From IMG/VR virus record IMGVR_UViG_3300017722_005389: a stretch of 64,000 nucleotides of DNA; one strand, written 5' to 3'. The notes under the pieces are model-generated. The model saw only the letters and a list, made by a program, of their open reading frames with translations. It ran no database searches and was not told the DNA's origin. The DNA is from a virus. Taxonomy: Duplodnaviria > Caudoviricetes. This document shows positions 287-28,607 of the stretch, in pieces. Within the stretch, counting starts at the first letter, position 1, and every line of letters begins with the position of its first letter. The translations under genes and the position numbers were made by a program.

Positions 287-385
287 AGTCCTGTGGCGGA
301 ATTGGTAGACGCACCGAAAGGTAGGAACGGTATGGAACCCGATTAAATAATCCTAATTACAGGTTCAAATCCTGTCAGGACCACA
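287..385 (+). tRNA. atypical tRNA-like element (Leu/Ser-type D arm, non-canonical anticodon region)
   Basis: Acceptor AGTCCTG/CAGGACC, D arm GCG-GAATTGGTAGA-CGC, T arm ACAGG-TTCAAAT-CCTGT; the ~46-nt centre has no 7-nt anticodon loop; 3' end ACAA, no encoded CCA. Confidence 0.7.
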
Positions 386-4459: not shown

Positions 4460-4551
4460 AGCTTTAAATTTTAATAGTGAAATGATAGTAAAAATACAAA
4501 AGAAATTTCAAACTTCCAAAGAAATTCAAAATTTCTTTTGGAAGTCCAATG

Positions 4552-4812
4552 TTAAAGATGAACAAAATTCTTGCAGTAGACGAAAAAAACCAAGTTTTTT
4601 ATGCAGACTGAATCTGCTCTGTTGAGAGCTTGTTCAAGGTTATTATCGATAACTGCTTGAACAAAGCTTCCACCTAACAGAACTTTATCTCTTGTCATCA
4701 TAATGGTTGCAGCAATATGGCAAACATGGTATTCATCTTCTCCAATTGGCGCAGGTATGCCATTATAAAATTGTCCGAAAGCTTTTTCAGCTAATATATA
4801 ATATTTTTCCAT
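4552..4812 (-). CDS. hypothetical protein
   Basis: ORF, start at MEKYYIL. Confidence 0.65.
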   Translation of the reverse strand: MEKYYILAEKAFGQFYNGIPAPIGEDEYHVCHIAATIMMTRDKVLLGGSFVQAVIDNNLEQALNRADSVCIKNLVFFVYCKNFVHL

Positions 4813-4847
4813 AATAAAGTTATTTTTGTACAATAAATCGATCAACT

Positions 4848-5039
4848 TTAGAAATTAGTTTTGAATTTATCATTCAACTGGTCGAAAAGGTCGTTGATTT
4901 TATCAACTTCTTTTTGGTAGTAATCTTTCAACTCTTGGTGTTCAGCTTTGTCCATCTCATAGATATAAGTGTTCCTTAGAGTCAAAGTATTTGCCGTTAG
5001 GAGAACGAATTGTTCTTCTGTTAATTTGAAATTTTTCAT
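4848..5039 (-). CDS. hypothetical protein
   Basis: 63 aa; carries the conserved ACTATTAAAA leader. Confidence 0.6.
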   Translation of the reverse strand: MKNFKLTEEQFVLLTANTLTLRNTYIYEMDKAEHQELKDYYQKEVDKINDLFDQLNDKFKTNF

Positions 5040-5063
5040 AGTCTTTAAAGTTTTAATAGTAAT

Positions 5064-5567
5064 TTAAATATTGTTCTTAGATTCCAACCATTTTGAATAT
5101 TCAAAATCTATGATGTCTTGCTTAACCTCATACACATTGTCATTGTAACGGTACAAATCATCTTCTTCTGACCAATAAATCAAGTCCAAAAATTCTTGTT
5201 CCACATAAGTTACGTTATATGTCCCATCGGCATAAACCTTTGCTGTTCCGTATACCTCACAGCTATCTTCATCAAACTCGGTTTCGGCATCCAAACCATA
5301 TTCTCTACAGAGTATAGCCAAATCTTCAAGATTAGGTGTCCACTTAGTCATATACCTTATTGAAAATTCTGTCCCATCAGCTATTTCATTTGGTTCATCT
5401 TTAACGATAAAACAGAAGTAACCATTTTTTATATTCTCGCTGTGTATGGCTTGACCTTCATTGTATCTTTCTTCTGTGTAAGCAGCTTTGTTAATAGCAT
5501 TGGTCAAAGCTTCGATTTTGTCCGAACTTCCTTTGAAAGAAGTAAAGTTGTTGCACCAATTCGGCAT
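5064..5567 (-). CDS. YubB/DUF1281-like ferredoxin-like protein
   Basis: MPNWCNN start and Y.TKW.P motif. Confidence 0.65.
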   Translation of the reverse strand: MPNWCNNFTSFKGSSDKIEALTNAINKAAYTEERYNEGQAIHSENIKNGYFCFIVKDEPNEIADGTEFSIRYMTKWTPNLEDLAILCREYGLDAETEFDEDSCEVYGTAKVYADGTYNVTYVEQEFLDLIYWSEEDDLYRYNDNVYEVKQDIIDFEYSKWLESKNNI

Positions 5568-5634
5568 AAGTTTAAAGTTTTAATAGTGATTTAAAAATAA
5601 GAGCGTAAGCGATTAAAATTGTCCAACAAAAATA

Positions 5635-5679
5635 CAAAAGAAATCTTGAACTTCCAAATGAAATCCAAGATTTCTTTTG
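5635..5679 (-). promoter_or_regulatory. 45-bp hairpin/promoter cassette boundary element
   Basis: CAAAAGAAATCTTG-N17-CAAGATTTCTTTTG next to a TATTTTTG -7 box. Confidence 0.75.
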
Positions 5680-5711
5680 TGTAAACCCAAAATTTTTATT
5701 TTGAAATAATT

Positions 5712-6260
5712 TTATTTGTTTCTTTCGATTTCGGCATCGTACAGAACTTGCCATCTCAAAGGAATGTTTTTAATACAGACAAATTCCTCATCCTCCTCAA
5801 GTTGCATCTTATTATTCATTAACTCAATCAGCGAGGTGTAATGATAGACAATGTCCAAACTCTCCTTCGGACAATTATTCTTTGTGTCCCAAGCGACAAA
5901 ATCTTCTCTGAGGATGTTTGGCAGTTCTATTGGGGGAAACATATTATGCCAATTCTCTTTTACACAATAATCGCTGTCCATATCAAGCAAATGTTCAATG
6001 TCATTAGTTGCATAATGCATTCTATTATATTCATCCATGTTCAAGTGAATCGAAATTCCCGAAAGTGTTTCGGCAGAACTATTGTGAATGATAGCGTGTA
6101 ATTCACTCAACACTTTCTTTGCACAATCCATTCGGTTTTGGATTTCAAGCAATTTGATTTCAAGAAGCACCATCTGTGCTAATACTTCTTTAGAGTGTAC
6201 ATCTTTGTTTGCATTTGGATTGGCAATCAACTCTCTGAGTTCTTTAAATTCTTTTAGCAT
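5712..6260 (-). CDS. hypothetical protein
   Basis: 182-aa ORF in a cassette. Confidence 0.7.
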   Translation of the reverse strand: MLKEFKELRELIANPNANKDVHSKEVLAQMVLLEIKLLEIQNRMDCAKKVLSELHAIIHNSSAETLSGISIHLNMDEYNRMHYATNDIEHLLDMDSDYCVKENWHNMFPPIELPNILREDFVAWDTKNNCPKESLDIVYHYTSLIELMNNKMQLEEDEEFVCIKNIPLRWQVLYDAEIERNK

Positions 6261-6305
6261 AATCTTTAAGTTTTAATAGTGAATAAGTGATTTAAAATTG
6301 TCCAA

Positions 6306-6358
6306 CAAAAATACAAAAGAAAGTTGACATTTCCAAGAGAAGCATCAACTTTCTTTTG
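6306..6358 (-). promoter_or_regulatory. 45-bp hairpin/promoter cassette boundary element
   Basis: Perfect 14-bp IR CAAAAGAAAGTTGA/TCAACTTTCTTTTG (6314-6358); -33 TTG in the loop, -7 TATTTTTG at 6306-6313. Confidence 0.8.
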
Positions 6359-6366
6359 AAATAATA

Positions 6367-6606
6367 TTATTTTTTTTCTGTTCCGTATTCTTCAATATAA
6401 TACGCCACATCATTCCAAGTTATGCCATAACTTGCATCATGATGCTTAATCATATCCTCCAAAGCCTCTTGCGCTGCTTCTTTGTCTATGGTGTATGCCG
6501 AATCGTTATATTCTATAAAATCCTGCACAGACCACTTGATGGATTCTTTTTTGTACTGCTGAAATTCAGCCAGTAATTGCTCATACATTTCTTTGTAATT
6601 TTCCAT
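6367..6606 (-). CDS. hypothetical protein
   Basis: 79 aa, acidic. Confidence 0.65.
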   Translation of the reverse strand: MENYKEMYEQLLAEFQQYKKESIKWSVQDFIEYNDSAYTIDKEAAQEALEDMIKHHDASYGITWNDVAYYIEEYGTEKK

Positions 6607-6618
6607 AGCTGTTATAGT

Positions 6619-6825
6619 TTAATAAATGTTTAATAATTCTTTTTCTACTGCATTGTAAAAGTTGATTTGGTTTACATTGTGCTTGTCTCCGTTAAACTTT
6701 TTTAGGTCTATCAAATACTTTCTTATCTGTCTTAAAAATTTCTCATTAGATTTGAAAGCATGCTTCTCTACCTCTATGAATTCTAAGACTCTTTTTTTAG
6801 TCGCATAATAAGTTACCTTTCTCAT
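6619..6825 (-). CDS. hypothetical protein
   Basis: 68 aa, basic. Confidence 0.6.
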   Translation of the reverse strand: MRKVTYYATKKRVLEFIEVEKHAFKSNEKFLRQIRKYLIDLKKFNGDKHNVNQINFYNAVEKELLNIY

Positions 6826-6846
6826 AGCTGTTATAATTTAAAGTGA

Positions 6847-7059
6847 TTAAAACCAATCCAACTCAAGTAGTGAGATTTTACCCTCTAATATGCCTTGCAT
6901 TGTCTCTTTGCTAACAATCGCATTTACCCAACCACCGCAGGTTTCTGTGATGTCAAATTTGTCCTCAGACATTCTGTAAACATCACGAGTAATCAACCCG
7001 AATTTCCAATCAATAGAATGTCCAATTGGCAAGTTCATAATTTTTTCCATAGCTGTCAT
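6847..7059 (-). CDS. hypothetical protein
   Basis: 70 aa with cassette leader. Confidence 0.65.
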   Translation of the reverse strand: MTAMEKIMNLPIGHSIDWKFGLITRDVYRMSEDKFDITETCGGWVNAIVSKETMQGILEGKISLLELDWF

Positions 7060-7128
7060 AATAGTATAAATTTTAATTGTGAATTAATTGTAGTACAAAA
7101 ATAGAAAATACTTTTCACATTTCATAAT

Positions 7129-7434
7129 TTATTTTGAAATTTCTTTTGTAATAATTACTTTTTCAATAAATTTCCCATGTACGAAAATATCCCCCAATCC
7201 AACTTCATCTGTTGACAATACGGTTGCCAAGCAATATTCTAAGATTTCTTGTCTGTGTTCTCTTGCAATATCATCCTGCTCACCTTTCAAGCGATAAACA
7301 AACTCTCTTGGTTCATCTGCATCATTTTCAAATGCGTGAATCAGTTTTGTGTTGACATCATAAAAGATATCAAAGGTGTTGTCATTGGTAGTGTTGTCAG
7401 CCAATTCAATTTGCTCTAAAAATAATTCTAACAT
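7129..7434 (-). CDS. hypothetical protein
   Basis: 101 aa with cassette leader. Confidence 0.65.
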   Translation of the reverse strand: MLELFLEQIELADNTTNDNTFDIFYDVNTKLIHAFENDADEPREFVYRLKGEQDDIAREHRQEILEYCLATVLSTDEVGLGDIFVHGKFIEKVIITKEISK

Positions 7435-7530
7435 AGCTGTAAGTGTTTAAATAGTGAATTAAAGATAGTGTAAAATTACAAAAGAAATCTCGAACTTCCA
7501 AATGAAATCCGAAATTTCTTTTGAAATAAA

Positions 7531-7983
7531 TTAAAATACTTTTGAGTAATCTTCTTTGTTAAAGAGTTTTATAATATCTCTCAATACATCTGTATAATTC
7601 TCAAGAGGAATGTTTATACTAAATTCAACGTAACCATGCCCAGTACCATCCCCTAAAAAGTTTTTATCTGCTTTTGAGGTTTCTTTATACTTTTCATATA
7701 ACTCTCCTAAGCTAATAAATTGAGTGCTTTCTCTATAACCTAATACTTTCATTTTAAACTTAACAGAATCCTTTGTAGCGTAAAATGAAGGCACTTCATA
7801 TCTTTGACCTATTTTGCCTAAATGAATAGTGCAATAGGAATTGTAGTCGTGTACTTCAACATTTATTCTAAATACATTTGAGAGGTCATTTGCTAATGTT
7901 TTTGCAAATGCTTTGTTTCTTTTAACGTTATCAATTTCGGTTCTTTCAGAATCCAACATTGCTTGAAGAAATAAGTTTTCCAT
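7531..7983 (-). CDS. hypothetical protein, paralog of 8104-8562
   Basis: Shared MENLFLQAM start and motifs throughout. Confidence 0.8.
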   Translation of the reverse strand: MENLFLQAMLDSERTEIDNVKRNKAFAKTLANDLSNVFRINVEVHDYNSYCTIHLGKIGQRYEVPSFYATKDSVKFKMKVLGYRESTQFISLGELYEKYKETSKADKNFLGDGTGHGYVEFSINIPLENYTDVLRDIIKLFNKEDYSKVF

Positions 7984-8103
7984 AATAGTATAAATTTTAA
8001 TAGTGAATTAAAGATAGTGTAAAATTACAAAAGAAATCTTGAACTTCCAAATAAAATTCAAGATTTCTTTTGTGTAAACCCAAAATTTTTATTTTGAAAT
8101 AAT

Positions 8104-8562
8104 TTAAAATACTTTGGCGTATCTATTTAATTTAAACAATGATAGAATATCCTTTAGAACATCATCATAATTCTGAAGGGGAATTTGTATTCTAAACGTA
8201 ACGTTACCATGCCCACTTTTCTCATTTAAGAAATTATTATCTGCTGTAGCTGAATCTTTATATTTCTCATATAAATCTCCTAACAGCCTTCCAAAAAGTT
8301 GCGACTCACCTCTATACCCCAATACATTCATATTGAATATGACACCATCTTTTTTAGCAATAAAGTATGGGCAATTAAATCTTTGACTCATTGTTCCAAC
8401 ATAAATTTGTGAAGAATCAATAGAATCACTGATTTGCAAATTTATTTGAAATACTTTCGAAAGGTCATTTGCTAATTTTCTTGCGAAATCTTTGTTTGCT
8501 TTAATGTTATCAATTTCAGTTCTTTCAGAAATTGGCATTGCTTGAAGAAATAAGTTTTCCAT
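8104..8562 (-). CDS. hypothetical protein, paralog of 7531-7983
   Basis: Tandem duplicate including the upstream element. Confidence 0.8.
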   Translation of the reverse strand: MENLFLQAMPISERTEIDNIKANKDFARKLANDLSKVFQINLQISDSIDSSQIYVGTMSQRFNCPYFIAKKDGVIFNMNVLGYRGESQLFGRLLGDLYEKYKDSATADNNFLNEKSGHGNVTFRIQIPLQNYDDVLKDILSLFKLNRYAKVF

Positions 8563-8689
8563 AATAGTATAAATTTTAATAGTGAAATAAATAGAATGTA
8601 AAATTACAAAAGAAACTCCAAACTTCCAAATAAAATTCAGAGTTTCTTTTGTGTAAACCCAAAATTTTTATTTTGAAATAATTTAAAAG

Positions 8690-8902
8690 TTACATTTCAC
8701 GAACCCATTCATCAGCATCATCATTTGAGATTCCGAATTTTCTACAGAGAATATCCACAATTATATCTTGTGTAATAAACTCTTCTTCGTCATCAGTATC
8801 CATACAATTTCTTACAATGCCTTCTTCTACAAGAGAGTCAACAATTTCAATAGCCAAATCTCTAACGTAATCCAAATCTTTCGGGAAGTTAATCGTTTCC
8901 AT
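8690..8902 (-). CDS. acidic hypothetical protein
   Basis: Start at METINF after the cassette leader. Confidence 0.65.
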   Translation of the reverse strand: METINFPKDLDYVRDLAIEIVDSLVEEGIVRNCMDTDDEEEFITQDIIVDILCRKFGISNDDADEWVREM

Positions 8903-8999
8903 AATCTTAATGTTTAAATAGTGAAATAATTTAATTGTAGTACAAAAATAGAAAATACTTTTCACATTTCATAATTTCTTTTGAAATAATTTTATTACA

Positions 9000-9233
9000 T
9001 TAACGAATTCCTTTATTCCATCGACCTCGGAATAATCTGCCATTTTCTTTATCATTATTATTATAAGCATAAAACAAATCACCATAATGTGATGTAGATA
9101 ATAAATCTACATTATCATAAACGGATAAATCCACCTCTTTTTCAGGGTAATACCAATCGGTATTATTTTTTAACCAACCCCAACATTCGATAGTTATTTT
9201 ACCATTTTCCATAAAATCAGAAAAACTTTGCAT
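9000..9233 (-). CDS. hypothetical protein
   Basis: 77 aa in a cassette. Confidence 0.65.
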   Translation of the reverse strand: MQSFSDFMENGKITIECWGWLKNNTDWYYPEKEVDLSVYDNVDLLSTSHYGDLFYAYNNNDKENGRLFRGRWNKGIR

Positions 9234-9334
9234 AAAATAAATTTTAATAAGTGAATTAAATATTTGACCCTACAAAGATATGCAAAGCAATTCACATTTC
9301 CAAATGAAATCCAAGATTTCTTTTGAAATAATTT

Positions 9335-10174
9335 TCAATAAATTTCATCTAAGTCGATTCCGTGAGTTTCATACCACCATTCTTTTGACTTATTAGAATG
9401 TTTATCCTTTAATCTGTTATATCGTTCCAAAATTTTGTTTTGGCGTTCAATTTCATTATTAAAAAACTCATGTTCTAATACTTCTCTACACTTGTATATT
9501 TCACGAAGTATTTTACGTAAAACATAACCTTGTTTTAGATTAGAGGGTATATAACCACTTTCTATAATTTTTAGAGCCGTATCTTTGAGTGTTTCAACTT
9601 TATCTATTTTTTTACCATTGACAAACATTTCAAGTCTTTCAAGCCCAAATCCAACATCAATACAATTATCAAGTGGGTTGACAATATTACCAATTTCAAT
9701 ACCATCAACAAAAAATTCTGTACAATAACCTCCTATTTCACCATCGCTCCAATGACAGTTTTCATCGTCTACTATTACATCCTCAATGCCCAGTTGATTA
9801 TAATATCCAAGCCACTCTTTTCTGTCACTATGAATTGTAACATAATCGGGTGTAATACCTATTTTTTTTAAGAATGTAACCCAAAAGATAATAGTATCTT
9901 CAATAGACATCTCTCTGAATGAGAATAACCCAATCATATTAAAATAGAGCAAATGGGATAAATCGCCTATTTCTTCAAAGTCATTCATTCGAATACAAGC
10001 TTGAACATTTGAAACAGTATTTTTATATTCGCTATCTTTGAATTGACATTTGAATTTTTGCATTCCTGCAGGGCAAAACAAAGTTGTATTGTCATAAGGA
10101 TTTACTTTGTTTTCAATGCTAAAGAAGATATTTTTTTCTTCGCAAAATTTTTGGTATTCTTCAATAATATTCAT
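9335..10174 (-). CDS. alaS: truncated alanyl-tRNA synthetase (catalytic domain only)
   Basis: DNTTLFCPAGMQKFK, QACIRMND.E.IGD..HL.YFNMIG.FSF, IDVGFGLERL, GYVLRKILR; 279 aa, no editing or C-Ala domain. Confidence 0.9.
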   Translation of the reverse strand: MNIIEEYQKFCEEKNIFFSIENKVNPYDNTTLFCPAGMQKFKCQFKDSEYKNTVSNVQACIRMNDFEEIGDLSHLLYFNMIGLFSFREMSIEDTIIFWVTFLKKIGITPDYVTIHSDRKEWLGYYNQLGIEDVIVDDENCHWSDGEIGGYCTEFFVDGIEIGNIVNPLDNCIDVGFGLERLEMFVNGKKIDKVETLKDTALKIIESGYIPSNLKQGYVLRKILREIYKCREVLEHEFFNNEIERQNKILERYNRLKDKHSNKSKEWWYETHGIDLDEIY

Positions 10175-10273
10175 AAAATAAAATTTAATAAGTGAATTAA
10201 ATATTTGACCCTACAAAGATATGCAAAGCAATTCACATTTCCAAAAGAAATGCAAAATTATTTCAAAAGAATT

Positions 10274-10900
10274 TTAAATTCTTCCTCTGAAGTATTTAAG
10301 TTCCTCGTTATAGTTTATTTTCTTTCTAACGAAGTTTAAAATACTTTCCTTTGTAAGTTGCCCACTTGCATCACAAAGTGGATAATTTTGCGTTCTGATG
10401 ATTTCAGAAGCTGGATATGGGTTGCCTTGATGATTTATGAATGCTGGCAGAAACGTTGACATTTCCAACCTGATAAAACTATTAAGCTTGACACCAGAAA
10501 ACTTTTCATTTGCTTCCCAGATTGTTACAGCTGCTTTGGCTTGTTCAACATAATTCATTTGAAGCAACTCTTCTTTAGAAACCTTTAAAAGTTCTCTTGC
10601 GTGATCACCAAACATTATAAGTCCAGCAAAGCCACCACCATCAGCTTTTGGATCCATACCAGATTCACCCCACATTATAAGCAAACAGAATTTCCAATCC
10701 AATTTTCTGGCATCACCAAAAGATTTCAATACTTTGACAAACTCTTCCCTTTCAACATCAGGAACCTTGCAAAGCAACTCTTTGACATCTGAGTGTTCAA
10801 TTTCAATGGGAAGAGGTACCTTTATTGAATGCGCATAATTTTTTGGCGCAGCAGCGATCAATGTAATACATAAAAAAATAGAAGTAAAAATTGTTTTCAT
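10274..10900 (-). CDS. exported lytic transglycosylase (SLT-like)
   Basis: Signal peptide; IMWGESGMDPKA catalytic Glu motif and GLIMF motif. Confidence 0.7.
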   Translation of the reverse strand: MKTIFTSIFLCITLIAAAPKNYAHSIKVPLPIEIEHSDVKELLCKVPDVEREEFVKVLKSFGDARKLDWKFCLLIMWGESGMDPKADGGGFAGLIMFGDHARELLKVSKEELLQMNYVEQAKAAVTIWEANEKFSGVKLNSFIRLEMSTFLPAFINHQGNPYPASEIIRTQNYPLCDASGQLTKESILNFVRKKINYNEELKYFRGRI

Positions 10901-10998
10901 AATAAAATTGTTTTAAATAAAAAAACCCTTGGGCTCACTACTTCCCAAGGGCAATTCACTATTAAACTATAAGAACTTTTTCTTTGGGAACTTATGAG

Positions 10999-11151
10999 TT
11001 ATTCCCAGGAGCATTTTTGTTTTCGATTGTATTTTTTAGCGTTCTTATGGACTTTTTTAATCGCATAAAACCCATGCGGATGCTTCTCCAGATAGACTTC
11101 TCTTGCACCAGAACCGCAAGCTTTCTCAAGAATTTTATTTGATTTTTTCAT
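10999..11151 (-). CDS. small basic protein (50 aa, not in ORF track)
   Basis: MKKSNKILEKACGSGAREVYLEKHPHGFYAIKKVHKNAKKYNRKQKCSWE; hairpin CCCTTGGG/CCCAAGGG downstream. Confidence 0.55.
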   Translation of the reverse strand: MKKSNKILEKACGSGAREVYLEKHPHGFYAIKKVHKNAKKYNRKQKCSWE

Positions 11152-11186
11152 AAGTGGCTGTATATCATATTATAAATAGTATCCAA

Positions 11187-11690
11187 CTATATAAAAAGTG
11201 TATCACCAACTTTGGTGCCAGAAAATAATCTGGCTTCAGAAACTATAAATTTTCTAAATTGGGTGCTTTGCATATAGTTAAATCTGATGTCATCTTTTAT
11301 TTTTGTGAGGGGTCTTCTTGTGTCCTCTTTAGTAGATTCAGATATTTGTTCTTTGGATTCAAGGAACCCGAACAAGTACAACTTGTCATCCTTCTTTTGT
11401 AGTCCAACCCCGATATTTTCATAAGGGTCCTTCCAATTGGAGTCCTCAGAAGCTTTCTTAGGAAACATAATCTTCTGAAGAATTTCTTGTCTAGCTTCTT
11501 CATAAACCTGCTCTTCAAAAGAAAGGTTTGAAAGTGTATTGATGTCATGTCCAATGCATTCATAGACATTCTTCTTGATATCTATAAGGTATTGTGCTGA
11601 TTCTCCTTTGGAGTTGGTGTATTCCATACAGATGCATCTTACATCTTCGGTCAACTCATTCCAGCGATTTGAAACTTCTGTTACTTGCAT
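11187..11690 (-). CDS. hypothetical protein, homolog of 26952-27605
   Basis: Shared Y.N..GE...LI, Y.FGF and R..LTK.KD..R..M.S..FR.F motifs. Confidence 0.75.
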   Translation of the reverse strand: MQVTEVSNRWNELTEDVRCICMEYTNSKGESAQYLIDIKKNVYECIGHDINTLSNLSFEEQVYEEARQEILQKIMFPKKASEDSNWKDPYENIGVGLQKKDDKLYLFGFLESKEQISESTKEDTRRPLTKIKDDIRFNYMQSTQFRKFIVSEARLFSGTKVGDTLFI

Positions 11691-11803
11691 AATAAATATT
11701 TTAATTGCAAATGTACAACTTTATTTTTTAAAAAAGAAGGGTTCAAAGGAAAAAATTTTAATTTTCTTAAGAACCCTCCGAAAACTCAAAATTATACTAA
11801 TAC

Positions 11804-12121
11804 CTAAAGTACAAAACAAGGTACTGAAACTATATGTCCAGCTTCATTTCTTACAACAGCTGGATGTCCAGTTGCAGGTGCAAGACAATCAGTTCTCCCT
11901 TGAAGCTTTGCAGCTGTCAGAACCACTGCTGAAACTATAAAGAAAGTTCCCTCTGCTGAATCGGGCAGGTCTTGAACTGTCCCAAACACTTGGGAACAAA
12001 TTCCGTTTTCTATTTCAGAGAATGTCGCAGAAACTCTTGCAACAGTCCCAGATTTTACAAATACTGTCCCATCGTTGAAAACGATATCGTGTGGGGTGCA
12101 ATTGATGAATGTAGCAGTCAT
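11804..12121 (-). CDS. conserved phage hypothetical protein
   Basis: INCTPH.I...SG.VARV and IVS..V...R.D.L.P...VR..G.I pattern, recalled from phage proteins. Confidence 0.7.
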   Translation of the reverse strand: MTATFINCTPHDIVFNDGTVFVKSGTVARVSATFSEIENGICSQVFGTVQDLPDSAEGTFFIVSAVVLTAAKLQGRTDCLAPATGHPAVVRNEAGHIVSVPCFVL

Positions 12122-12304
12122 AGTAGTAAAGATTTAAATGTTAATAAAATTTTTCAATGCTGCTTTGCCTGCAATGGGTTTAGTGTGAAAAAATACGGGC
12201 TTTAGGGTTTCCCACTCCCTTTTTTTTTATTTTATAAACAAAATCCCGATTTTTTCTTTGACTTCTTTATATTCACGAAATAGTCTTTTTAGTTTTAAAA
12301 AATA

Positions 12305-12800
12305 AATTGGTGGCGTATTAATTATTTCACGCCTTAACTCCCAATATCTATCAATTAGTTTATCCATTCAATTTTCTTTTTGCTTCAAACAAATCAAACA
12401 TTTGCTCTCCAGTTAGCGATAATGTAATCCTGCAGCCATCTGTATGAGTGCCTGTTATTTCATCTTCCCTCTGCACTCAGTTGTAATACTAAATAATGCT
12501 TGTATTTCTACACACTATTCATTAGAAGGTTTTCGTTTTATACCTCATAGATTACAACTGCTCACCCTTGGGAACTGATTAACTTACATACTCAAGGTTG
12601 TCATCCTTGTACTGTTCCTGAAGACTTTACAGGTTTCACATTATGTAATTCATTCTGACTTGTGTAACAGTCTTATTAATCAGGTAGTTTCACATCTTAA
12701 TAAGACATTCACTACTTTAAGTGAGTTGTGGTGCATTAAAAAGAGCAGTTTGTCTACATGCTCAGATATACGCAGAATATCAATGCCTTTCTATGTTCTT
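12305..12800 (-). ncRNA. large structured ncRNA candidate (~500 nt)
   Basis: No ORF of 60 aa or more. Many helices: GGCGT/ACGCC, GAGTGC/GCACTC, CAGTTGTAAT/ATTACAACTG (12478-87/12551-60), TGTA-GAAA-TACA, CAAGG/CCTTG, CCTG/CAGG, GTCTTATTAA/TTAATAAGAC (12670-79/12697-706), GAGCA/TGCTC. Strand inferred from neighbours and the GAAA loop. Confidence 0.55.
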
Positions 12801-12911
12801 TAATAAATTATTGCGCATTAAAATTGCAGAACCTAATCTTTCAATTTTAGTGTGAAAAAAAAGGGGGCAAATGCCAAAGGGAAATCGCCCCCCACTTCAC
12901 TAATTAAAACA

Positions 12912-13238
12912 CTATATGGATGGAACTAAATTGCTTTTTAATACCTCTTGGATTCTTTCAACAACTTCCTTAGAATTTCCTCCAACATTCCAATGGGTTA
13001 TTTTTGTTTTGGCTGTACCCTCTCTGCCAAGATAATTTTTGCCGTTCTTCCAATTATAGATGGTGGCAACAGTACCATCTTCGAATTGAATATACCATTC
13101 AGCATCGGTCTTATATCCCTCGTCTGATTGTGGTTTTCCGAAAATCTTTTTAAGTAAGCTGTACTCCGCATCAATGTAACCTTGAAAATGAGTTCCATTG
13201 ACATCAATGTTTGACTTATTGTGTGTTACGAATTTCAT
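12912..13238 (-). CDS. conserved phage hypothetical protein
   Basis: GTHFQGYI...FGKP...KTDAEW...ATIYNWK...WNVGG. Confidence 0.75.
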   Translation of the reverse strand: MKFVTHNKSNIDVNGTHFQGYIDAEYSLLKKIFGKPQSDEGYKTDAEWYIQFEDGTVATIYNWKNGKNYLGREGTAKTKITHWNVGGNSKEVVERIQEVLKSNLVPSI

Positions 13239-13377
13239 AAGAAAATAAAATTTAATAGTGAGTGAATTAAACGACCTTACAAAGATACAACTTACATTTG
13301 GCATTTCAAAATTTTTCTTTAGAAAAAAACAAGGGCTTCAAAACTTTTTTTGCTTTCTAATGAAGCCCTTGTATATT

Positions 13378-13848
13378 TTACCAAGAAGAATGGTATTCAA
13401 AAGAAACTTCATAGTCATTCTCAAAGACACCCTCTATAGCTTCTGAAAGCATTTTTATTGTGTCTGCAACATCTTCGTAATAGTACGCTTTATACTCTGT
13501 ATCACCGAAGAAGAAACCTGCGTGTGTGGGCAAATTTTCCTGACTGAAAGCATTATCTTTCTTTTCTAACACTTGCTCACAAAGGGCAATAAGTTTTTTT
13601 AGTTGGGTAATGGTTACTTCGTAAACTCCACAATCATCTTCGCCATCTTGAACGTTATCTACGAACCATTTGTGGATATGGTTTGCTTTGCGCCAGTATG
13701 CAGCACTTTCATGAATTTCCGAAATCATTTTTGGTTTAATGTTAATGACATTGCCATTAACTTTGATTTCAACAGAAGCTTCAACATTACGGTGGTCATA
13801 ATGCGCACCGATGTAAATCTTCTTTGTCAGATACATATCAAGTCCCAT
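13378..13848 (-). CDS. conserved phage protein (MGLDMYL family)
   Basis: MGLDMYL start, YWRKANHIH.WF, GFFFG and Y.SSW end. Confidence 0.8.
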   Translation of the reverse strand: MGLDMYLTKKIYIGAHYDHRNVEASVEIKVNGNVINIKPKMISEIHESAAYWRKANHIHKWFVDNVQDGEDDCGVYEVTITQLKKLIALCEQVLEKKDNAFSQENLPTHAGFFFGDTEYKAYYYEDVADTIKMLSEAIEGVFENDYEVSFEYHSSW

Positions 13849-13890
13849 AATCTTTAAAGTTTTAAAATAGTGAATAAAATAATTGTACAA

Positions 13891-13943
13891 CAAAATTACA
13901 AAAGAAAGTTGACATTTCCAAGAGAAGCATCAACTTTCTTTTG
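13891..13943 (-). promoter_or_regulatory. 45-bp hairpin/promoter cassette boundary element
   Basis: Same 14-bp IR as at 6314; -7 TAATTTTG. Confidence 0.75.
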
Positions 13944-13956
13944 AAATAATTAAAAT

Positions 13957-14121
13957 TTAACAATCCATATCATTTACTTGGTTTCTAAAATACTCTGTGA
14001 TGTCTATTAAGGCATCCACCAATTCTTCTTCAGACATCAATGCGAATTCTTTCGCATCTTCAACTGTTTCGATTTCGTCTGAAGAAAAATCAAAAATTGC
14101 TTCAATAAGTTTCTTTCTCAT
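13957..14121 (-). CDS. small acidic protein (54 aa)
   Basis: MRKKLIEAIFDFSSDEIET...; own promoter upstream. Confidence 0.6.
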   Translation of the reverse strand: MRKKLIEAIFDFSSDEIETVEDAKEFALMSEEELVDALIDITEYFRNQVNDMDC

Positions 14122-14212
14122 AATAAAGTTTTAAAATAGTGAATGAAATAAAATAATTGTCCTACAAAAATAGAAAATACTTTTGGCATTTCCAAATTTT
14201 CTTTTGAAAGAA

Positions 14213-14485
14213 TTACAAATAATATTCAGTAATCAAATTGGTAGCGGTTTCTTCTATGTAAATATCGCTCATTGTATCTGTTGTATTGTACCAATAGTCA
14301 TCATCATCGGTTTTGAGAAACCCTTGCACTATATCATTGTTATAGATTTCAGTAGCAATCTGTTCAATTGCTTCAACTGAAGCAATATTATCTAACGGCA
14401 TTTCTTGATTAGATCTTGTAACTCTAATTCTTTCCCAGGTTCTTGCAACATGAACCAATACATAATTGAAAATTGTCCTATTCAT
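14213..14485 (-). CDS. hypothetical protein
   Basis: Start at MNRTIF. Confidence 0.6.
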   Translation of the reverse strand: MNRTIFNYVLVHVARTWERIRVTRSNQEMPLDNIASVEAIEQIATEIYNNDIVQGFLKTDDDDYWYNTTDTMSDIYIEETATNLITEYYL

Positions 14486-14615
14486 AAATTTGGATTTTTG
14501 CAGGTTTATAACCATAGTTCATTACTATCAAGCCAATTTCATTGTCAGCTTCCTTTTCAGTCAAAGGAACTCTGTTCAACTTGATGTTCTTATAAAACAA
14601 ATTAAATGTTTTCAT
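14478..14615 (-). pseudogene. small gene with premature in-frame TAA
   Basis: MKNI*LFYKNIKLNRVPLTEKEADNEIGLIVMNYGYKPAKIQIYE*; ATG overlaps the upstream TGA and the stop overlaps the next ATG. Confidence 0.45.
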
Positions 14616-14878
14616 ACAGTATTTATTCTTATGAGTTCTGTTTTAATAACAGAAGCAAGGTTATTAAGTTGTAAGACAACATCTAAAGGGTAATATTTAT
14701 AAACGGCTTCACAAGATAAGGTTTCAAAAACATCGCCACTATAAATTTTTTCTTCTAATTCGTAATCTGTATCGACATACATTTCTCTCCCCTCTAAGAG
14801 TTTAATAACTCCTTCCAACAATACATCTTTTGGAATTTCTGTTATTGAAATAACAGAAAAGCTTTCATTGGTAAACAT
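14612..14878 (-). CDS. hypothetical protein
   Basis: 88 aa with cassette leader. Confidence 0.65.
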   Translation of the reverse strand: MFTNESFSVISITEIPKDVLLEGVIKLLEGREMYVDTDYELEEKIYSGDVFETLSCEAVYKYYPLDVVLQLNNLASVIKTELIRINTV

Positions 14879-14973
14879 AATAGTATAATTTAATAGTGAA
14901 ATAAATATAATGTAAAATTACAAAAGAAATCTCGAACTTCCAAATGAAATCCAAGATTTCTTTTGAAATAATT

Positions 14974-15183
14974 TTAATTGTTTTCTATGGTATCTAAGTA
15001 AATCATTTCATTGTTGACACAAATATATTCTCTGTTATCGTTTCCAGTATCTGTGTACACCATTATATATCCAACTGGTGTTCCATTGAGAAACAATATA
15101 ATATCTTCATTATTCTCGTCCAAGTAAGACAGCTGGGCATAGCTTGTGAAATCAAGTGTCAATTCATCTGTGTAAAATTCCAT
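14974..15183 (-). CDS. acidic hypothetical protein
   Basis: 69 aa. Confidence 0.65.
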   Translation of the reverse strand: MEFYTDELTLDFTSYAQLSYLDENNEDIILFLNGTPVGYIMVYTDTGNDNREYICVNNEMIYLDTIENN

Positions 15184-15210
15184 AAGTATGATGTTTAATA
15201 GTGAGAAAAT

Positions 15211-15507
15211 TTATTGAAACTCGTAACCAACTTCGGTTACATAAAAATTAGAACCATCGAGGTTGTCATTTCTCATCTTTAACATATATATGTCAAAGTA
15301 TCCAAAGGTACTTTCCTTTTCGCTGTTGAACATTATGTTCCAATCAGTTATAGTATTTGTCTCGTCATCCTCGTTGACGATTTCAGCTTCAATTTTTTCA
15401 TCAAAGGCTTTTGACAAACTTTCTGTCAATGTTTTCATATTAAACCTTTGACCAACCAAAGATTCTAAAAAGTCTGCAATTTCTTTTTGCTTTTGAGTGA
15501 GAGCCAT
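15211..15507 (-). CDS. hypothetical protein
   Basis: Start at MALTQK after the leader. Confidence 0.65.
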   Translation of the reverse strand: MALTQKQKEIADFLESLVGQRFNMKTLTESLSKAFDEKIEAEIVNEDDETNTITDWNIMFNSEKESTFGYFDIYMLKMRNDNLDGSNFYVTEVGYEFQ

Positions 15508-15565
15508 AGTGATAATGTTTAATAGTGATTTAAAAATAAGAGCGTAAGCGATTAAAATTGTCCAA

Positions 15566-15618
15566 CAAAAATACAAAAGAAAGTTGACATTTCCAAGAGA
15601 AGCATCAACTTTCTTTTG
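15566..15618 (-). promoter_or_regulatory. 45-bp hairpin/promoter cassette boundary element
   Basis: Same IR as at 6314 and 13899. Confidence 0.75.
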
Positions 15619-15625
15619 AAATAAT

Positions 15626-15799
15626 TTATTTTTCTTTCAAATCTTCATAGGTGGTTATTGAAGCAGTTACTCTTTCTATAAATAAATCTGCCCATTGGTT
15701 ATCGTCCATCATGCCGATACCTTTTTGGTTTTGGTAATCTGCTAAGTCCTGCTGGATGTCATCAAGAATAGCTTTTAGCGTTTCAAAATTCATGTTCAT
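15626..15799 (-). CDS. small hypothetical protein (57 aa)
   Basis: MNMNFETLKAILDDIQQ...; conserved leader. Confidence 0.55.
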   Translation of the reverse strand: MNMNFETLKAILDDIQQDLADYQNQKGIGMMDDNQWADLFIERVTASITTYEDLKEK

Positions 15800-15832
15800 A
15801 ATGTAAAATTTTATTAGTGAGTGAAATAATAT

Positions 15833-16069
15833 TTATTCTTCGTTAAACTCTGCATTATGCTCACAATCCGCATAAAAAAGGTCGGGACAATCAGATATTT
15901 CTAATGTGTGTTTGCAATACGCACACTCAATTTCATTGTCCATTATATCGTGTAATAGAACCTCCCCACAATTCCCACACGTTACAATGTTAATATTTGC
16001 TAACGCTATAACTCTTTTTGATAGTTCAATTTGTTTTTCAACTAATTGTCTTTTTGTTACTTTTGTCAT
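15833..16069 (-). CDS. zinc-ribbon protein
   Basis: CGNC...CAYC...DCPD. Confidence 0.65.
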   Translation of the reverse strand: MTKVTKRQLVEKQIELSKRVIALANINIVTCGNCGEVLLHDIMDNEIECAYCKHTLEISDCPDLFYADCEHNAEFNEE

Positions 16070-16153
16070 AATTTTTAAAGTTTTATTAGTGAATAAAATA
16101 ATGTCCAACAAAAATAGAAAATACTTTTGGCATTTCAAAATTTATTTCCAACT

Positions 16154-16414
16154 TTATTTTGAAAGAATTAAATTTTTTATAGTCCCACTTCCAATGACAT
16201 AAACGAATAAATCTTCAATGATCGTTTCTTCATCGGTCTCTGTCCTATTCAAGAGAATGAAATTGTTATCATCATCTTGATAGATGAAAGTTCCCTCTGT
16301 ATCGCCATCGCTTTTCACAGACCAGACTGGGTTTCCTCCCCAGTTTGCTGAAGATCTCTGGACAACTCTTTTATAATGTTTGTCCAAGAACTTCTGTACG
16401 TTTTTGTGTAACAT
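16154..16414 (-). CDS. hypothetical protein
   Basis: 86 aa. Confidence 0.6.
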   Translation of the reverse strand: MLHKNVQKFLDKHYKRVVQRSSANWGGNPVWSVKSDGDTEGTFIYQDDDNNFILLNRTETDEETIIEDLFVYVIGSGTIKNLILSK

Positions 16415-16722
16415 AGTTTTAAGTTTAATAGTGAAATAAAATGTCCAAATTCAAATTGAACTTTCTTTTGAAATAATTTTTTAGTACAAATAAACTTTAG
16501 TTCCTCGCAGAATTTCTCTGCCACTTTCAATAATAAACAGTTTTGCTTCTTTTAAAGATTTTGCTTTAATCTCTTGTGTGCAAAATGAATCATTAGTGTT
16601 TGCTTTGCGTGTCCAAGCTTTGTAAGTTTTCATAATATTAGTTTTATTTGTGAATAATAAGTATAAAGATAAAAAAGAAAGTTGACATTTCCAAGAGAAG
16701 CATCAACTTTCTTTTGAAATAA

Positions 16723-16998
16723 TTACAACCAAGTTTTTTTAGTTATTTTCTTTTTTCCATCTACTAATTCCCATCTTTCAAACCACTGACCCCATTCACC
16801 CCTGCGAGACCTTGTAATTTCTACAGTATTATCCGTAGCATTGTCCAATAGTCTTTGCAGACTTTTCTTTAGGCTTTCATAAGTGTTAAAATGCCCTTGA
16901 GCTAAATGCTCTCCATAAGTTGAGTAATAATATATTAACCCAAGTCTTTCAGCAATATTTCTATTGCTTACTTTCAAACATACATAAGGTTGTCTCAT
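16723..16998 (-). CDS. hypothetical protein
   Basis: 91 aa in a cassette. Confidence 0.65.
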   Translation of the reverse strand: MRQPYVCLKVSNRNIAERLGLIYYYSTYGEHLAQGHFNTYESLKKSLQRLLDNATDNTVEITRSRRGEWGQWFERWELVDGKKKITKKTWL

Positions 16999-17155
16999 AT
17001 CTATATAATTTAATAGCGATTAAATTGTCCTACAAAAATAGTAAACACTTTTGGCATTTCCAAATTTTCTTTTGAAATAATTTCAGTTTCAAAAGATTTT
17101 TTTTGGTGCCCCTGGATCGATCTCCAGGGGCATTGTCCAAAATCTTACATTGCCC

Positions 17156-18082
17156 TTACATTGCCACCGACATTGCATCGTACATTGCCTTAGTCACAAT
17201 GAAGCTATTGTCCGACTGATTTTTAGGAACTTTTTTCAAGTTCAACCCTAAGACTTGTTTTTCTTGCAAGAACGTCAAATCTGTTTCATCGCCATTTGCG
17301 ACATCGTAACCTAAAAACGTTTCGGGGAATTGACCACCAAAAGAAGCTAAGTCAAAGACTACAGCTATTTTTTGTCCAATTGACAATGCATACATAGCTG
17401 TAGCTATATTGTTATGCTCATTGGTATTTGCATAGCTGAATGTAACATCATAATTGCTATGCTCATTGGCATTGTCCAATTGCTTTTGCATCTTAGTATA
17501 GTCATAGAATTGAACATCTGAATGAATGTCCAATAATGACTGGCTATCAGTTTTAAACAAGTTAATGTTCAAATCTGATGTACCATTCAAACGAACAGCA
17601 AAGTTCTTATTTTGTGATGCAGACAAAAACTTTGCAGCACTAATTTCGGCATTAAGCCAATCCATAAAAAAGTTTCGGTTAAAAAAGAATAACCAAGTTT
17701 TTTTCAGTCTTGCCCAAGTTATTTGGTTAATAACTTGTCCTTCAGTTAACATCATTGCCCTACCTGATTCAACAAGACAAGCTTGTTTGCAGCCTGATGT
17801 AGCTTGCGGACAAATATTGAAACCTGACATATCTGCTGCTGCAAGATACATTACTAAGGTATTGTAATCTTTTTTCTCGCCTTTGACAATCTTAGCTGAA
17901 CTATTTACGCCAGCAAGATACGACAAACCTGTCATTTTTGTAGCCTTTGAACGGTTGACAAATTTTTTGCTTTCAACGTTTCGAAGCATTGTAATTACTT
18001 CTTTCATTTTTGAAAGATAGTCTGACTTAGATGCAGACACTTCTGCTACAGCACCTGCAATTTTTTTAAGGAAAGCTTTCAT
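17156..18082 (-). CDS. GP88-like protein (Cys-cluster, radical-SAM-like)
   Basis: CPQATSGCKQACL..GR, VRLNGTSD, QFYDYTK, NGDETDL motifs. Confidence 0.75.
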   Translation of the reverse strand: MKAFLKKIAGAVAEVSASKSDYLSKMKEVITMLRNVESKKFVNRSKATKMTGLSYLAGVNSSAKIVKGEKKDYNTLVMYLAAADMSGFNICPQATSGCKQACLVESGRAMMLTEGQVINQITWARLKKTWLFFFNRNFFMDWLNAEISAAKFLSASQNKNFAVRLNGTSDLNINLFKTDSQSLLDIHSDVQFYDYTKMQKQLDNANEHSNYDVTFSYANTNEHNNIATAMYALSIGQKIAVVFDLASFGGQFPETFLGYDVANGDETDLTFLQEKQVLGLNLKKVPKNQSDNSFIVTKAMYDAMSVAM

Positions 18083-18164
18083 AGTGTATGAAATTTAATA
18101 GTGAAACAATAATAAGTACAAAGATAGTAAAAGATATTAGAACTACAAATAATTTCAAAAGAAA

Positions 18165-18470
18165 ATTTAAAATATTTTTTGTAGTCGTAACTACCTTTGC
18201 AAATATCTTGAGACAAAGATATAACAAGTTTTTCAAATAAAAAAATTTATTTTTACCTCAAAAGAACTTTTTTAATTTCCAAATTTTTTAACAATTTTAA
18301 CTAAAAAAAATTCTGGCATTGTAATATACGAAAACACGCTGGCAACGAAATATACGAAGATTTCAATCTGTTGCAGGTCTGGATTAATCCTACCTTCGAA
18401 CTTCGTCTCAGAGATATGCACTATCAATTAGCTGTTACAAAAGTATGCATAATAGCTGGCATTACAAAAT
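18165..18470 (-). repeat. ~310-bp direct repeat copy A (copy B at 23172-23530)
   Basis: Shared GTAACTACCTTTGCAAATATCTTGAGACAAAGATATAACAAG ... GGATTAATCCTACCTTCGAA ... CTATCAATTAGCT; own promoter at the right end. Confidence 0.85.
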
Positions 18471-18499
18471 ATTTTTAGTTAAATTTTTAAATTATTTTA

Positions 18500-18640
18500 A
18501 AATAATTTTCAAAGGAAAGATCTTTGTTTCTTTTGAACCCAGATTTGCCTCTATTCGCTTAAAATTTGCCATCTGAGACACTTTCACTCCAGTCTGGATT
18601 AATACCTCGATCCAAATGTAAAAACGTCTCAGATCGAATA
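18500..18640. repeat. ~140-bp repeat with ATCTGAGAC/GTCTCAGAT inverted arms (second copy ~19138-19300)
   Basis: Both copies start TTTTCAAA.GAAA.ATCTTTGTTTCTTTTGAACCCAG and carry GCCATCTGAGAC...GTCT(C/T)AGATCGAA. Confidence 0.7.
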
Positions 18641-18690
18641 TACGACAAGCTGGTATAAGGAATAAAAAAACCCCTTTCGGGGTTCAGAAG

Positions 18691-18843
18691 TTATTTTGAT
18701 ATCTTTATTTGTCTGTCATAAAGATAATCTTTATAAACAGCATATACATTGTAATCTTGCTCTTCTCTAACGAAGATTAACTTTTCATCTTCAGCTGGTG
18801 TGTAAGATTTTAAAACTTGCTTTGAACTCTTTTTCATAAACAT
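18691..18843 (-). CDS. small hypothetical protein
   Basis: MFMKKSSKQVLKSY...; followed by a CCCCTTTCGGGG terminator. Confidence 0.5.
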   Translation of the reverse strand: MFMKKSSKQVLKSYTPAEDEKLIFVREEQDYNVYAVYKDYLYDRQIKISK

Positions 18844-18857
18844 AATTTTTAAAGTTA

Positions 18858-19049
18858 TTATATAAGTTCCCATTTAATTACTGAGTCACTCAGTATGTTT
18901 AATATTTGCCCAGCCTCAAATCTGTCAATTACCGCATACTGAATTGTCAAAGTTTCTTTATCTTTACCCAGTAAAGATTCAGAGGTTCTAAAGGTGCTAC
19001 AAAAACTATTGAATAGTTTTTTGTTGTTTAATTTCATCTGTAGTGTCAT
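18858..19049 (-). CDS. hypothetical protein
   Basis: 63 aa behind a promoter and leader. Confidence 0.6.
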   Translation of the reverse strand: MTLQMKLNNKKLFNSFCSTFRTSESLLGKDKETLTIQYAVIDRFEAGQILNILSDSVIKWELI

Positions 19050-19442
19050 AAGTTAAAGTTTTAATAGTGATTTAATGAGTACAAATTACGATATTATTAT
19101 TGACACTACCAAATTATTTTAGTTAAAATTTTAAAATAATTTTCAAAAGAAAAATCTTTGTTTCTTTTGAACCCAGGTCCAGATTGCCCAGATTGCCCAG
19201 ATATAACTCTAATGATTAAAATTTTGCCATCTGAGACGCTTTTAGCTATTCAGTAACATCTTAGCCCAGACTGGTATAAAAGTGTCTTAGATCGAAGATT
19301 GTCACAAATTATTACTATAATTGGGACAAATTTAATGATCATTCGCAAAAAAAATAGACTACCAAAAGAAAATTATTGATCTACATTTGGTAGTCTATTA
19401 TACTTATCGCAAAAAAAAAGCTACCATAAAGGTAGCCTTAAT

Positions 19443-19610
19443 TTATCTTACAATGTATGCACTATCTTTGACAAACATTACCTTGAGCGTATCATCACCG
19501 CTCCATTGGTAGTTGTCTGGTGTTACAGCAGATGCAGATGCAGTTTCAAAATTTTGCAGCAGAAAATAAGCCACAACAACTAGTACTACTAATATCAGAA
19601 AATCTTTCAT
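19443..19610 (-). CDS. small membrane-anchored protein (55 aa)
   Basis: MKDFLILVVLVVVAYFLLQ... Confidence 0.6.
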   Translation of the reverse strand: MKDFLILVVLVVVAYFLLQNFETASASAVTPDNYQWSGDDTLKVMFVKDSAYIVR

Positions 19611-19636
19611 AAGTGTAAGTTTTAATAGTGAAGTAA

Positions 19637-19771
19637 TTATCTTTGGCTTGATTTAACACAATTGGCTACGCTTGGTGCTTGATGAGCAATCTGTGAAGTT
19701 TCAAGTAATAGAACCTCTACAAGCATTCCATTTATGAACATTACAAGTTTTTCTTCATTTTTGGATTTCAT
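19637..19771 (-). CDS. small hypothetical protein
   Basis: Start at MKSKNEE after a cassette element. Confidence 0.5.
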   Translation of the reverse strand: MKSKNEEKLVMFINGMLVEVLLLETSQIAHQAPSVANCVKSSQR

Positions 19772-19890
19772 TGGTAGTGAATTTAAATGGTAAATTAAAT
19801 ATAGTGTAAAATTACAAAAGAAAGTTGGCATTTCAAAATAAATTACCAACTTTCTTTTGTGTAAACCCAAAATTTTTCTTTTGAAATAAT

Positions 19891-20247
19891 TTAATTTATT
19901 CTGACACCATTTTTGAATGTAACTATAAAGCAGTCTCTGAACATTGTTCGTCTGTAGTATGAATGCTTTATATAGGCATCAGCTAAATCTTCTGAAGGAA
20001 TTAAAACTCTGTAGATTATTTTTCCATCTTTCAGACAAGCAGTCTCAAATTCATAGGCATCAATAACCTGTTCATGAAACTTAGGTTTCTGCATCAGCAT
20101 TTCTAGGTTTGATGTTGAAGCTATCTGTACTGCATATTGAATTTTATCGGGTACACAAGGAACTGTTTTGTTATCGGTGCTATCAATTGATTGCCCAAAA
20201 GAAAAAGTTGCTGTAACGACAAATAATGCGATTAAAATCTTTTTCAT
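19891..20247 (-). CDS. exported SPOR-domain-like protein
   Basis: Signal peptide; YAVQIAS ... IYRVLI ... DCFIV pattern. Confidence 0.55.
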   Translation of the reverse strand: MKKILIALFVVTATFSFGQSIDSTDNKTVPCVPDKIQYAVQIASTSNLEMLMQKPKFHEQVIDAYEFETACLKDGKIIYRVLIPSEDLADAYIKHSYYRRTMFRDCFIVTFKNGVRIN

Positions 20248-27868: not shown

Positions 27869-28148
27869 AAGGTGTCCGATATACTAAAGTTTTATTATAT
27901 ACGAATGTGTCCAATGTACGTTGTATACGTTATATACGAATGTGTCCAATGTACGCTGTATACGTTATATGCGAATGTGTCCAATGTACGCTGTATACGT
28001 TATATACGAAGGTGTCCGATATACTAAAGTTTTATTATATACGAATGTGTCCAATGTACGTTGTATACGTTATATACGAATGTGTCCAATGTACGCTGTA
28101 TACGTTATATACGAATGTGTCCAATGTACGTTGTATACGTTATATACA
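27869..28148. repeat. 8 x 35-bp tandem repeat in a 2 x 140-bp higher-order unit
   Basis: Units start at 27869, 27904, 27939, 27974, 28009, 28044, 28079, 28114 (AATGTGTCCAATGTACGYTGTATACGTTATATACG and an AAGGTGTCCGAT variant). Confidence 0.9.
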
Positions 28149-28149
28149 C

Positions 28150-28530: not shown

Positions 28531-28607
28531 CTCCTGACCTGTATACGAAATCTGGTCATGGATCAGCCGACCTGCTAAAAAAATTTTTTTCAAAATTTTC
28601 AAATTCC

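Follow-up and report, generated by a model that had tools for sequence, protein, structure and literature searches.

The 64,000-nt stretch of phage DNA analysed here (the window; IMG/VR record IMGVR_UViG_3300017722_005389, Caudoviricetes) carries a gene whose product is, judged by its sequence, a mini alanyl-tRNA synthetase (mini-AlaRS) far smaller than that of Tupanvirus and belonging to prokaryotic hosts. We consider it likely that the mini-AlaRS charges tRNA-Ala. For the family as a whole, the evidence leans towards a functional AlaRS of ~280 aa whose ancestral form would have been an autoregulated sensor, a ribosome pause caused by uncharged tRNA-Ala leading to a −1 slip and so to synthesis of a nearly alanine-free AlaRS. 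The most surprising element, this Ala-codon frameshift switch, appears in the relatives and not in the window copy. The features of the locus are as follows.

9335–10174, minus strand: mini alanyl-tRNA synthetase gene, 279 aa, in-frame ATG, 3 Ala residues in total
9608–10174, minus strand: class II catalytic domain (residues ~1–189), with active-site positions invariant in 106 family sequences
9338–9607, minus strand: condensed helical tRNA-recognition domain (residues ~190–279), from structure alignment and motifs
10214–10245, minus strand: Bacteroidota-type promoter, consensus match to TTTG-N20-TAnnTTTG, 39 nt before the ATG
10163–10259, minus strand: repeat at the cassette head, comprising promoter and leader, upstream of the mini-AlaRS gene; repeat family D17
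9222–9318, minus strand: further copy of that repeat (92% identity) at the head of the next cassette, directly downstream of the mini-AlaRS gene

The open reading frame is intact from its ATG. Residues 6–163 of the protein match Pfam tRNA-synt_2c (PF01411; E = 1e-20), the search that the earlier note had proposed for its 279-aa class II AlaRS, and the motif 2 and motif 3 Arg residues, the adenine-stacking Phe and the Ala-pocket Trp, Asp and Gly are all present, confirming that identification. With E. coli AlaRS numbering counting Met1, the equivalences (window = E. coli) are R62=R70, D65=D77, H74=H87, F78=F91, M80=M93, W142=W171, E153=E184, E160=E210, N163=N213, V165=V215, D173=D236, G175=G238, G177=G240 and R180=R243. 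These 14 active-site positions are invariant in the 106 family sequences (a table of 107 rows, including one E. coli control), so the loss of catalytic Arg residues that the earlier note had allowed for does not occur. The protein resembles solved AlaRS fragments, and its sequence scores to full AlaRS are weak: it reached 74 bits against the canonical alaS equivalog TIGR00344 (cut-off 457), and in PHROGs it had one weak match, to a family of 897 positions. The dN/dS of the window copy is ~0.08 against its nearest relative and 0.07–0.08 against close relatives (pairs with dS <2).

The AlphaFold model of the protein has a pLDDT of 91, and its best structural match is an E. coli AlaRS fragment (TM 0.77). 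In VIA-align, model residues 1–279 superpose on E. coli AlaRS 2–412 (Z 22.9, rmsd 3.9) and also on A. fulgidus AlaRS 60–458. Because the full model spans E. coli 2–412, the shortening (~130 residues) is internal and does not come from a chain that stops after the catalytic domain. On this model the catalytic domain is followed by the tRNA-recognition domain in its entirety, in condensed form, where the earlier note had seen a core with only the start of the helical domain. The recognition domain contains a PSN motif with N212 equivalent to E. coli N303, and R224 is equivalent to R315. At the C-terminus, WWxETHG is the counterpart of LYDTYG and places E269 at the D400 position; a profile of canonical residues 345–415 matches the family C-terminus weakly, so this assignment rests on the structure alignment and the xT[HY]G motif. 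N303 and D400 are the residues with which AlaRS reads G3:U70 (PMC10036535). The N303 position is N in ~70 of the 106 family sequences, about one-third of members having no N there, and the D400 position is D in ~78 and E in 12, the window copy among the latter. Editing and C-Ala domains were absent from the protein, as the earlier note had it, and equally from the whole window and from the 6 kb around any related locus.

The small size is shared. A homologue search gave 977 matches among proteins of 153–489 aa, the best 120 being mostly 274–290 aa, and a search free of length limits found no close long relative. In 226 family loci the end points of the gene differ by no more than a few codons. 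Thus the length of ~280 aa holds family-wide, and the possibility raised by the earlier note, that homologues are full length and the window copy a recent fragment, falls away. In a quick maximum-likelihood tree, which left out Tupanvirus AlaRS, a long branch (SH-aLRT 99) separates the family from the other sequences, and the Bacteroidota alaS tested (Flavobacterium) falls outside it; the premise of a truncated Bacteroidota AlaRS is therefore unsupported. Database labels for members say AlaRS-related and nothing more specific.

Viral members lie on contigs of 22–58% GC and up to 635 kb. The window protein is also carried on a contig of 271,677 bp, the longest one with this protein, and the window itself appears to come from a large AT-rich phage genome. 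Bacterial members come from many Rhizobium, Neorhizobium, Phyllobacterium, Inquilinus and Caulobacteraceae genomes and some Planctomycetota, and a full-length alaS accompanies the mini-AlaRS in all five genomes checked. The bacterial gene stands alone in varying contexts, and no conserved element was found downstream of it. Across 232 loci no conserved neighbouring protein gene, partner or carrier included, was found, and operon and biosynthetic-cluster readings were dropped for that reason. Six family copies (L139, L145, L146, L148, L068 and L072) have internal stops or frameshifts and are candidates for pseudogenes or assembly errors; L068, with 24 stops, perhaps has another frame break or code. 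One member (L048, 5725–6936) is 403 aa long; its N-terminus is extended by ~90 aa that match no known family, and it probably also has an internal insertion. L156 and L157 are two gene copies ~39 kb apart on one 68-kb contig, from duplication or an assembly artefact.

Linkage to tRNA genes was assessed in 29 clusters with at least two tRNA genes nearby. A tRNA-Ala gene lay within 6 kb in 21 of these, and the nearest tRNA was Ala in 12, against 5.2 expected (p ~6e-4, kinship ignored). G3:U70 was present in 34 of 38 distinct neighbouring tRNA-Ala. Phage copies thus often adjoin G3:U70 tRNA-Ala genes. The tRNA arrays round the gene (L009–L013, L057, L175–L190) contain many repeated genes for Glu, Gly, Tyr, Asp and Ala, and at L010 and L166 the acceptor stem is mispaired and without G3:U70 in a few tRNA-Ala(UGC/GGC). 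In the window, ARAGORN found zero tRNA genes, and neither ARAGORN nor Rfam found a tRNA-Ala gene. A tRNA-like RNA at 287–383 (plus strand), missed by ARAGORN, scored 37 bits with Rfam; its D and T arms are well formed, it has A1.C72 and U3:A70, and a normal anticodon arm is missing. The U3:A70 pair rules it out as an AlaRS substrate, in line with the earlier note's remark that this element lacks G3:U70. Two near-complete phage genomes with ATG-type copies of the gene likewise have no tRNA-Ala, so that these copies would act on host tRNA, and host tRNA-Ala is most likely also what the window enzyme would charge.

The protein avoids the amino acid that it would attach. Its Ala content is below that of the neighbouring genes in 81 of 81 loci (by GC class, 1.1 vs 4.3%, 1.6 vs 6.2% and 3.8 vs 11.9%). 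The window copy has 3 Ala in 279 residues, vs 4.5% for the rest of the window genes (p = 0.001). Counts in three Alphaproteobacteria are 12–15 Ala for the mini enzyme and 90–111 for the housekeeping AlaRS. This scarcity is partly but not entirely a matter of the fold, since the matching 1–410 region of the same housekeeping enzymes is still richer in Ala (6.8–7.8%, vs 4.3–5.4% in the mini enzyme). Among AT-rich loci, genes of the frameshift type described below have a median of 1 Ala, several having 0, vs 5 in those of the ATG type (p = 5e-6).

When the 5′ ends of bacterial copies were aligned, a near-invariant AGGAGG-N6-ATG was found in the frame +1 to that of AlaRS, in a short frame ending R-D-A-stop. 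Clustering at 90% identity gave 65 clusters with no in-frame ATG near the start and 44 with one. The succession of a +1-frame start, a slip-prone codon and a first Ala codon occurred in 62 of the 65 no-ATG clusters and in 0 of the 44 ATG clusters (31/34 vs 0/26 at 75% identity), and in those 62 the first Ala codon of the leader is the exact start of AlaRS homology. The slip codon begins with the same base as the one preceding it, and six kinds were seen: G_GAC 51, A_AAC 5, G_GTC 2, T_TTA 2, G_GAA 1 and T_TCC 1. All 62 clusters have an Ala codon directly after the slip site, whereas the slip codon and the distance to the stop vary, the leader frame ending 0–7 codons past the Ala codon. The relatives thus show the sequence marks of a programmed −1 frameshift: a two-frame ORF, no in-frame start and a shift-prone site. 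Examples occur at L076–L148 (at ~5975–6010), at L005, L011–L013, L018, L057, L175–L177, L184 and L234, and at L150–L152. Sequencing error and polymerase slippage were rejected as causes, because complete bacterial chromosomes (L123, L129) show the pattern and no homopolymer run is involved. An in-frame start is lacking in the bacterial copies, whose starts are therefore likely to be misplaced by gene callers.

Because the start codon lies in the +1 frame, ribosomes on these mRNAs must slip −1 or stop. Slipping by −1 brings CGC or AGC into the A site, and a tRNA-Ala already paired to GCN cannot re-pair with either, so that a P-site slip over an empty Ala codon alone would fit, the ‘hungry’ route of frameshifting (PMC7026636). 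Most of the sampled relatives thus look as if they can be made only through a ribosome slip at an unfilled Ala codon. In one AT-rich phage clade a 7-bp stem begins 6 nt past the CGC, with 7/7 pairs in 14 of 16 loci and covariation from G-C to A-T, G-C to C-G and A-T to G-C. This hairpin is gone from six ATG-type relatives of that clade and is not evident in most Rhizobium or Planctomycetota copies. In the tree the leader is found on the deepest branches and the ATG types sit nested within (7 changes); provided that the root is correct, this points to repeated loss of the leader. The window copy belongs to an all-ATG clade; it has an in-frame ATG and no out-of-frame leader, Ala-codon slip site or hairpin.

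We propose that a stand-alone AlaRS devoid of editing tops up Ala-tRNA(Ala). Alanine would be activated with ATP in the AlaRS pocket, whose residues are intact, and the condensed recognition domain, whose fold the model shows, would read the acceptor stem, presumably at G3:U70. Proofreading might be left to host AlaRS or AlaXp-type editors in trans, or be dispensed with. In the leader-bearing relatives, scarce Ala-tRNA would make the ribosome wait at the first Ala codon and slip −1, so that AlaRS is made; failing a slip, leader translation would end within the 0–7 codons that follow. This would close a feedback loop, with a product that needs almost no alanine and relieves the shortage of Ala-tRNA. 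The shortage could come from inhibition or overloading of the host AlaRS, from poor charging of phage tRNAs or from low alanine. Since a second AlaRS would be of use only where charging capacity or affinity is the bottleneck, an inhibited or overloaded host enzyme, or ill-charged phage tRNAs, is the likely trigger. The window phage would have dropped the sensor and would express the enzyme simply from a host-type promoter; with a plain in-frame ATG, it would be made whenever that promoter fires.

Charging is favoured by the adjacency of tRNA-Ala genes, the Ala-poor protein and the Ala-codon leader. Of the activities that the earlier note had listed, charging of tRNA-Ala without proofreading is now, with the recognition domain added to these three lines, the best supported, and synthesis of ApnA or alanylation of a non-tRNA target loses ground, because the recognition domain is kept, tRNA-Ala genes adjoin the gene and the family has the leader. 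Several observations count against charging: the E at the D400 position and the missing leader in the window copy, the one-third of members with no N at the N303 position, the absence of tRNA-Ala from the window and from the two near-complete ATG-type phage genomes, a length ~180 residues below that of Tupanvirus AlaRS, and the failure of the comparable E. coli N461 fragment to complement in vivo (PMC10036535).

The alternative to which we give most weight, though it is itself unlikely, accepts a real AlaRS and regards the leader as a constant damper, through a fixed low-rate frameshift or near-cognate re-initiation, instead of a sensor of Ala-tRNA. The hairpin, which lies at stimulator distance in one clade, would suit a fixed rate, and many copies have CTG, ATT or ATA directly after the slip site, where re-initiation could occur; several, however, have no near-cognate start there (L059, L177, L190, L211). 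Also against a damper are an Ala codon that stays constant in 62 clusters despite the varying slip codon and stop distance, the lower Ala content of frameshift-type genes (median 1 vs 5 in AT-rich loci), and the inability of an A-site tRNA-Ala to re-pair, by which only a P-site slip over an empty A site would fit. We regard it as improbable that the enzyme activates alanine (or lactate, Ser or Gly) only to pass it to a protein or metabolite, or to make ApnA dinucleotides. Truncated aaRS paralogues such as EpmA and the amino acid:carrier-protein ligases do act on non-tRNA acceptors, and the intact active site and the absence of C-Ala, the main tRNA-binding domain, agree with such a role. Those paralogues, however, lose their tRNA-binding parts, whereas mini-AlaRS keeps the recognition domain as far as the D400 motif; the 232 loci hold no conserved partner or carrier gene, and the tRNA-Ala adjacency, Ala avoidance and Ala-codon leader would be left unexplained.

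It is more improbable again that mini-AlaRS is one subunit of a split AlaRS, needing an editing or C-Ala partner like the alpha subunit of Nanoarchaeum. In the absence of beta, N. equitans alpha shows weak charging that is not specific for G3:U70 (PMC10036535), and host genomes have free-standing tRNA_SAD proteins of ~240–270 aa. The recognition domain is, however, kept through D400, unlike in alpha, and the 6 kb around every locus and the window contain no editing or C-Ala region. Separate from these proteins, open frames of 560–600 aa with a tRNA_SAD editing motif were seen in Inquilinus and Reyranella (G002:C1:6214282, L246; G009:C23:233296); they are distinct from alaS and from short AlaXp-like frames. 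Harm to the host, by mischarging of tRNA-Ala with Ser or Gly or by sequestration of tRNA-Ala, has very little to commend it. The D236/G238 pocket is what lets AlaRS misactivate Ser and Gly; it is unchanged in the window protein (D173, G175), and the editing domain is absent. Against harm, intact copies are under purifying selection beside a normal alaS in many bacterial genomes, and the phage depends on the same ribosomes. Lastly, a recent, decaying fragment of host alaS, to which the short length and weak scores to full AlaRS could point, is refuted for practical purposes by the 977 homologues of the same length, the near-identical end point in 226 loci, the single clade far from cellular AlaRS and the dN/dS of ~0.08.

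Feedback frameshifts whose product relieves the triggering shortage are known from prfB (RF2) and antizyme; prfB, unlike the present leader, senses release factor via a +1 shift at a stop codon. Auxiliary, inhibitor-resistant aaRS paralogues (IleRS2, TrpRS1, SerRS2) similarly provide a second aaRS beside the housekeeping copy, TrpRS1 being induced through cognate codons in its leader, but they are full length and use attenuation instead of frameshifting. The proposed mechanism itself matches hungry-codon −1 frameshifting, a one-tRNA P-site slip over an empty A site; as of a 2016 review, no such shift was known to be used for a starvation-specific product (PMC7026636, PMC5009743). For the enzyme, the nearest parallel is Tupanvirus AlaRS (461 aa; Antika et al. 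2023), which, although it has neither an editing nor a C-Ala domain, charges tRNA-Ala and can rescue yeast (PMC10036535), and so sets a precedent for a working AlaRS of this kind. It too is viral and consists of catalytic and tRNA-recognition domains, but the present protein, at 279 aa, is condensed by internal deletions. Tupanvirus AlaRS has lost the N/D readers, which the phage and bacterial family mostly keeps, and is an amoeba-virus enzyme with no reported frameshift control, placed with eukaryotic enzymes and related to that of its amoeba host (PMC10036535).

Canonical alaS (TIGR00344; 876 aa in E. coli) shares the fold of residues 1–412 and all catalytic residues checked; mini-AlaRS differs in having no barrel, editing or C-Ala domains and in forming a separate clade. 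The small-AlaRS of CPR, DPANN and Asgard (~560–600 aa; bioRxiv 2023.05.29.542759) is also reduced, without barrel and C-Ala, but retains the editing domain and belongs to a different clade. N. equitans alpha is a similarly short catalytic chain but requires beta and has only part of the recognition domain, and no beta-like gene was found here (6 kb per locus, and the window). A literature search, with most subscription journals outside its coverage, returned no description of the mini-AlaRS family or its frameshift; in a paper on Mu Mom (PMC13219725), AlaRS serves as a reagent only.

If correct, this would be a natural hungry-codon frameshift acting as a feedback switch common to phages and bacteria, and the family supplies a testable candidate for deliberate hungry-codon frameshifting, a case for which the 2016 review knew no example. 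The enzyme would show how small a working natural AlaRS can be and would serve as a compact model, of interest for aaRS origins, of how G3:U70 in the acceptor stem is read; the ~20-nt switch could report Ala-tRNA charging. The spread through large phages and soil Alphaproteobacteria points to some pressure on alanine charging, for example an AlaRS inhibitor or a defence toxin.

In the window, the segments 10163–10259 and 9222–9318 are 92% identical over 97 nt, and each has, 39 nt before an ATG, a match to TTTG-N20-TAnnTTTG, the Bacteroidota primary-sigma consensus. The observation in the earlier note that the gene has its own promoter, nearly identical to that of the neighbouring cassette, was thus borne out at the level of sequence. 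As the second copy adjoins its downstream end, the mini-AlaRS gene is flanked by direct repeats, and the host-type promoter may point to ‘early’ expression. The repeat belongs to a larger family at 4.4–20 kb of the window. The closest relatives (L153–L159, L074, L075, L008) do not have the cassette promoter, so the cassette context is local and no family trait.

About 15 copies of the promoter-bearing repeat lie at 4460–19900, each heading a small minus-strand cassette. Two paralogous ORFs of ~150 aa (7531–7983 and 8104–8562, minus strand), which gave no family match, are arranged as tandem cassettes with repeats D8 and D12, which suggests cassette duplication via the promoter repeats. Just upstream of the mini-AlaRS gene, at 10274–10900 (minus strand), a 208-aa ORF has a predicted hydrophobic N-terminus, weak PHROG matches and an ESG..A..G..GL motif reminiscent of lytic transglycosylases. 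A low-complexity tandem-repeat stretch at 27907–28766, near a GC-skew switch, is possibly an origin or terminal region.
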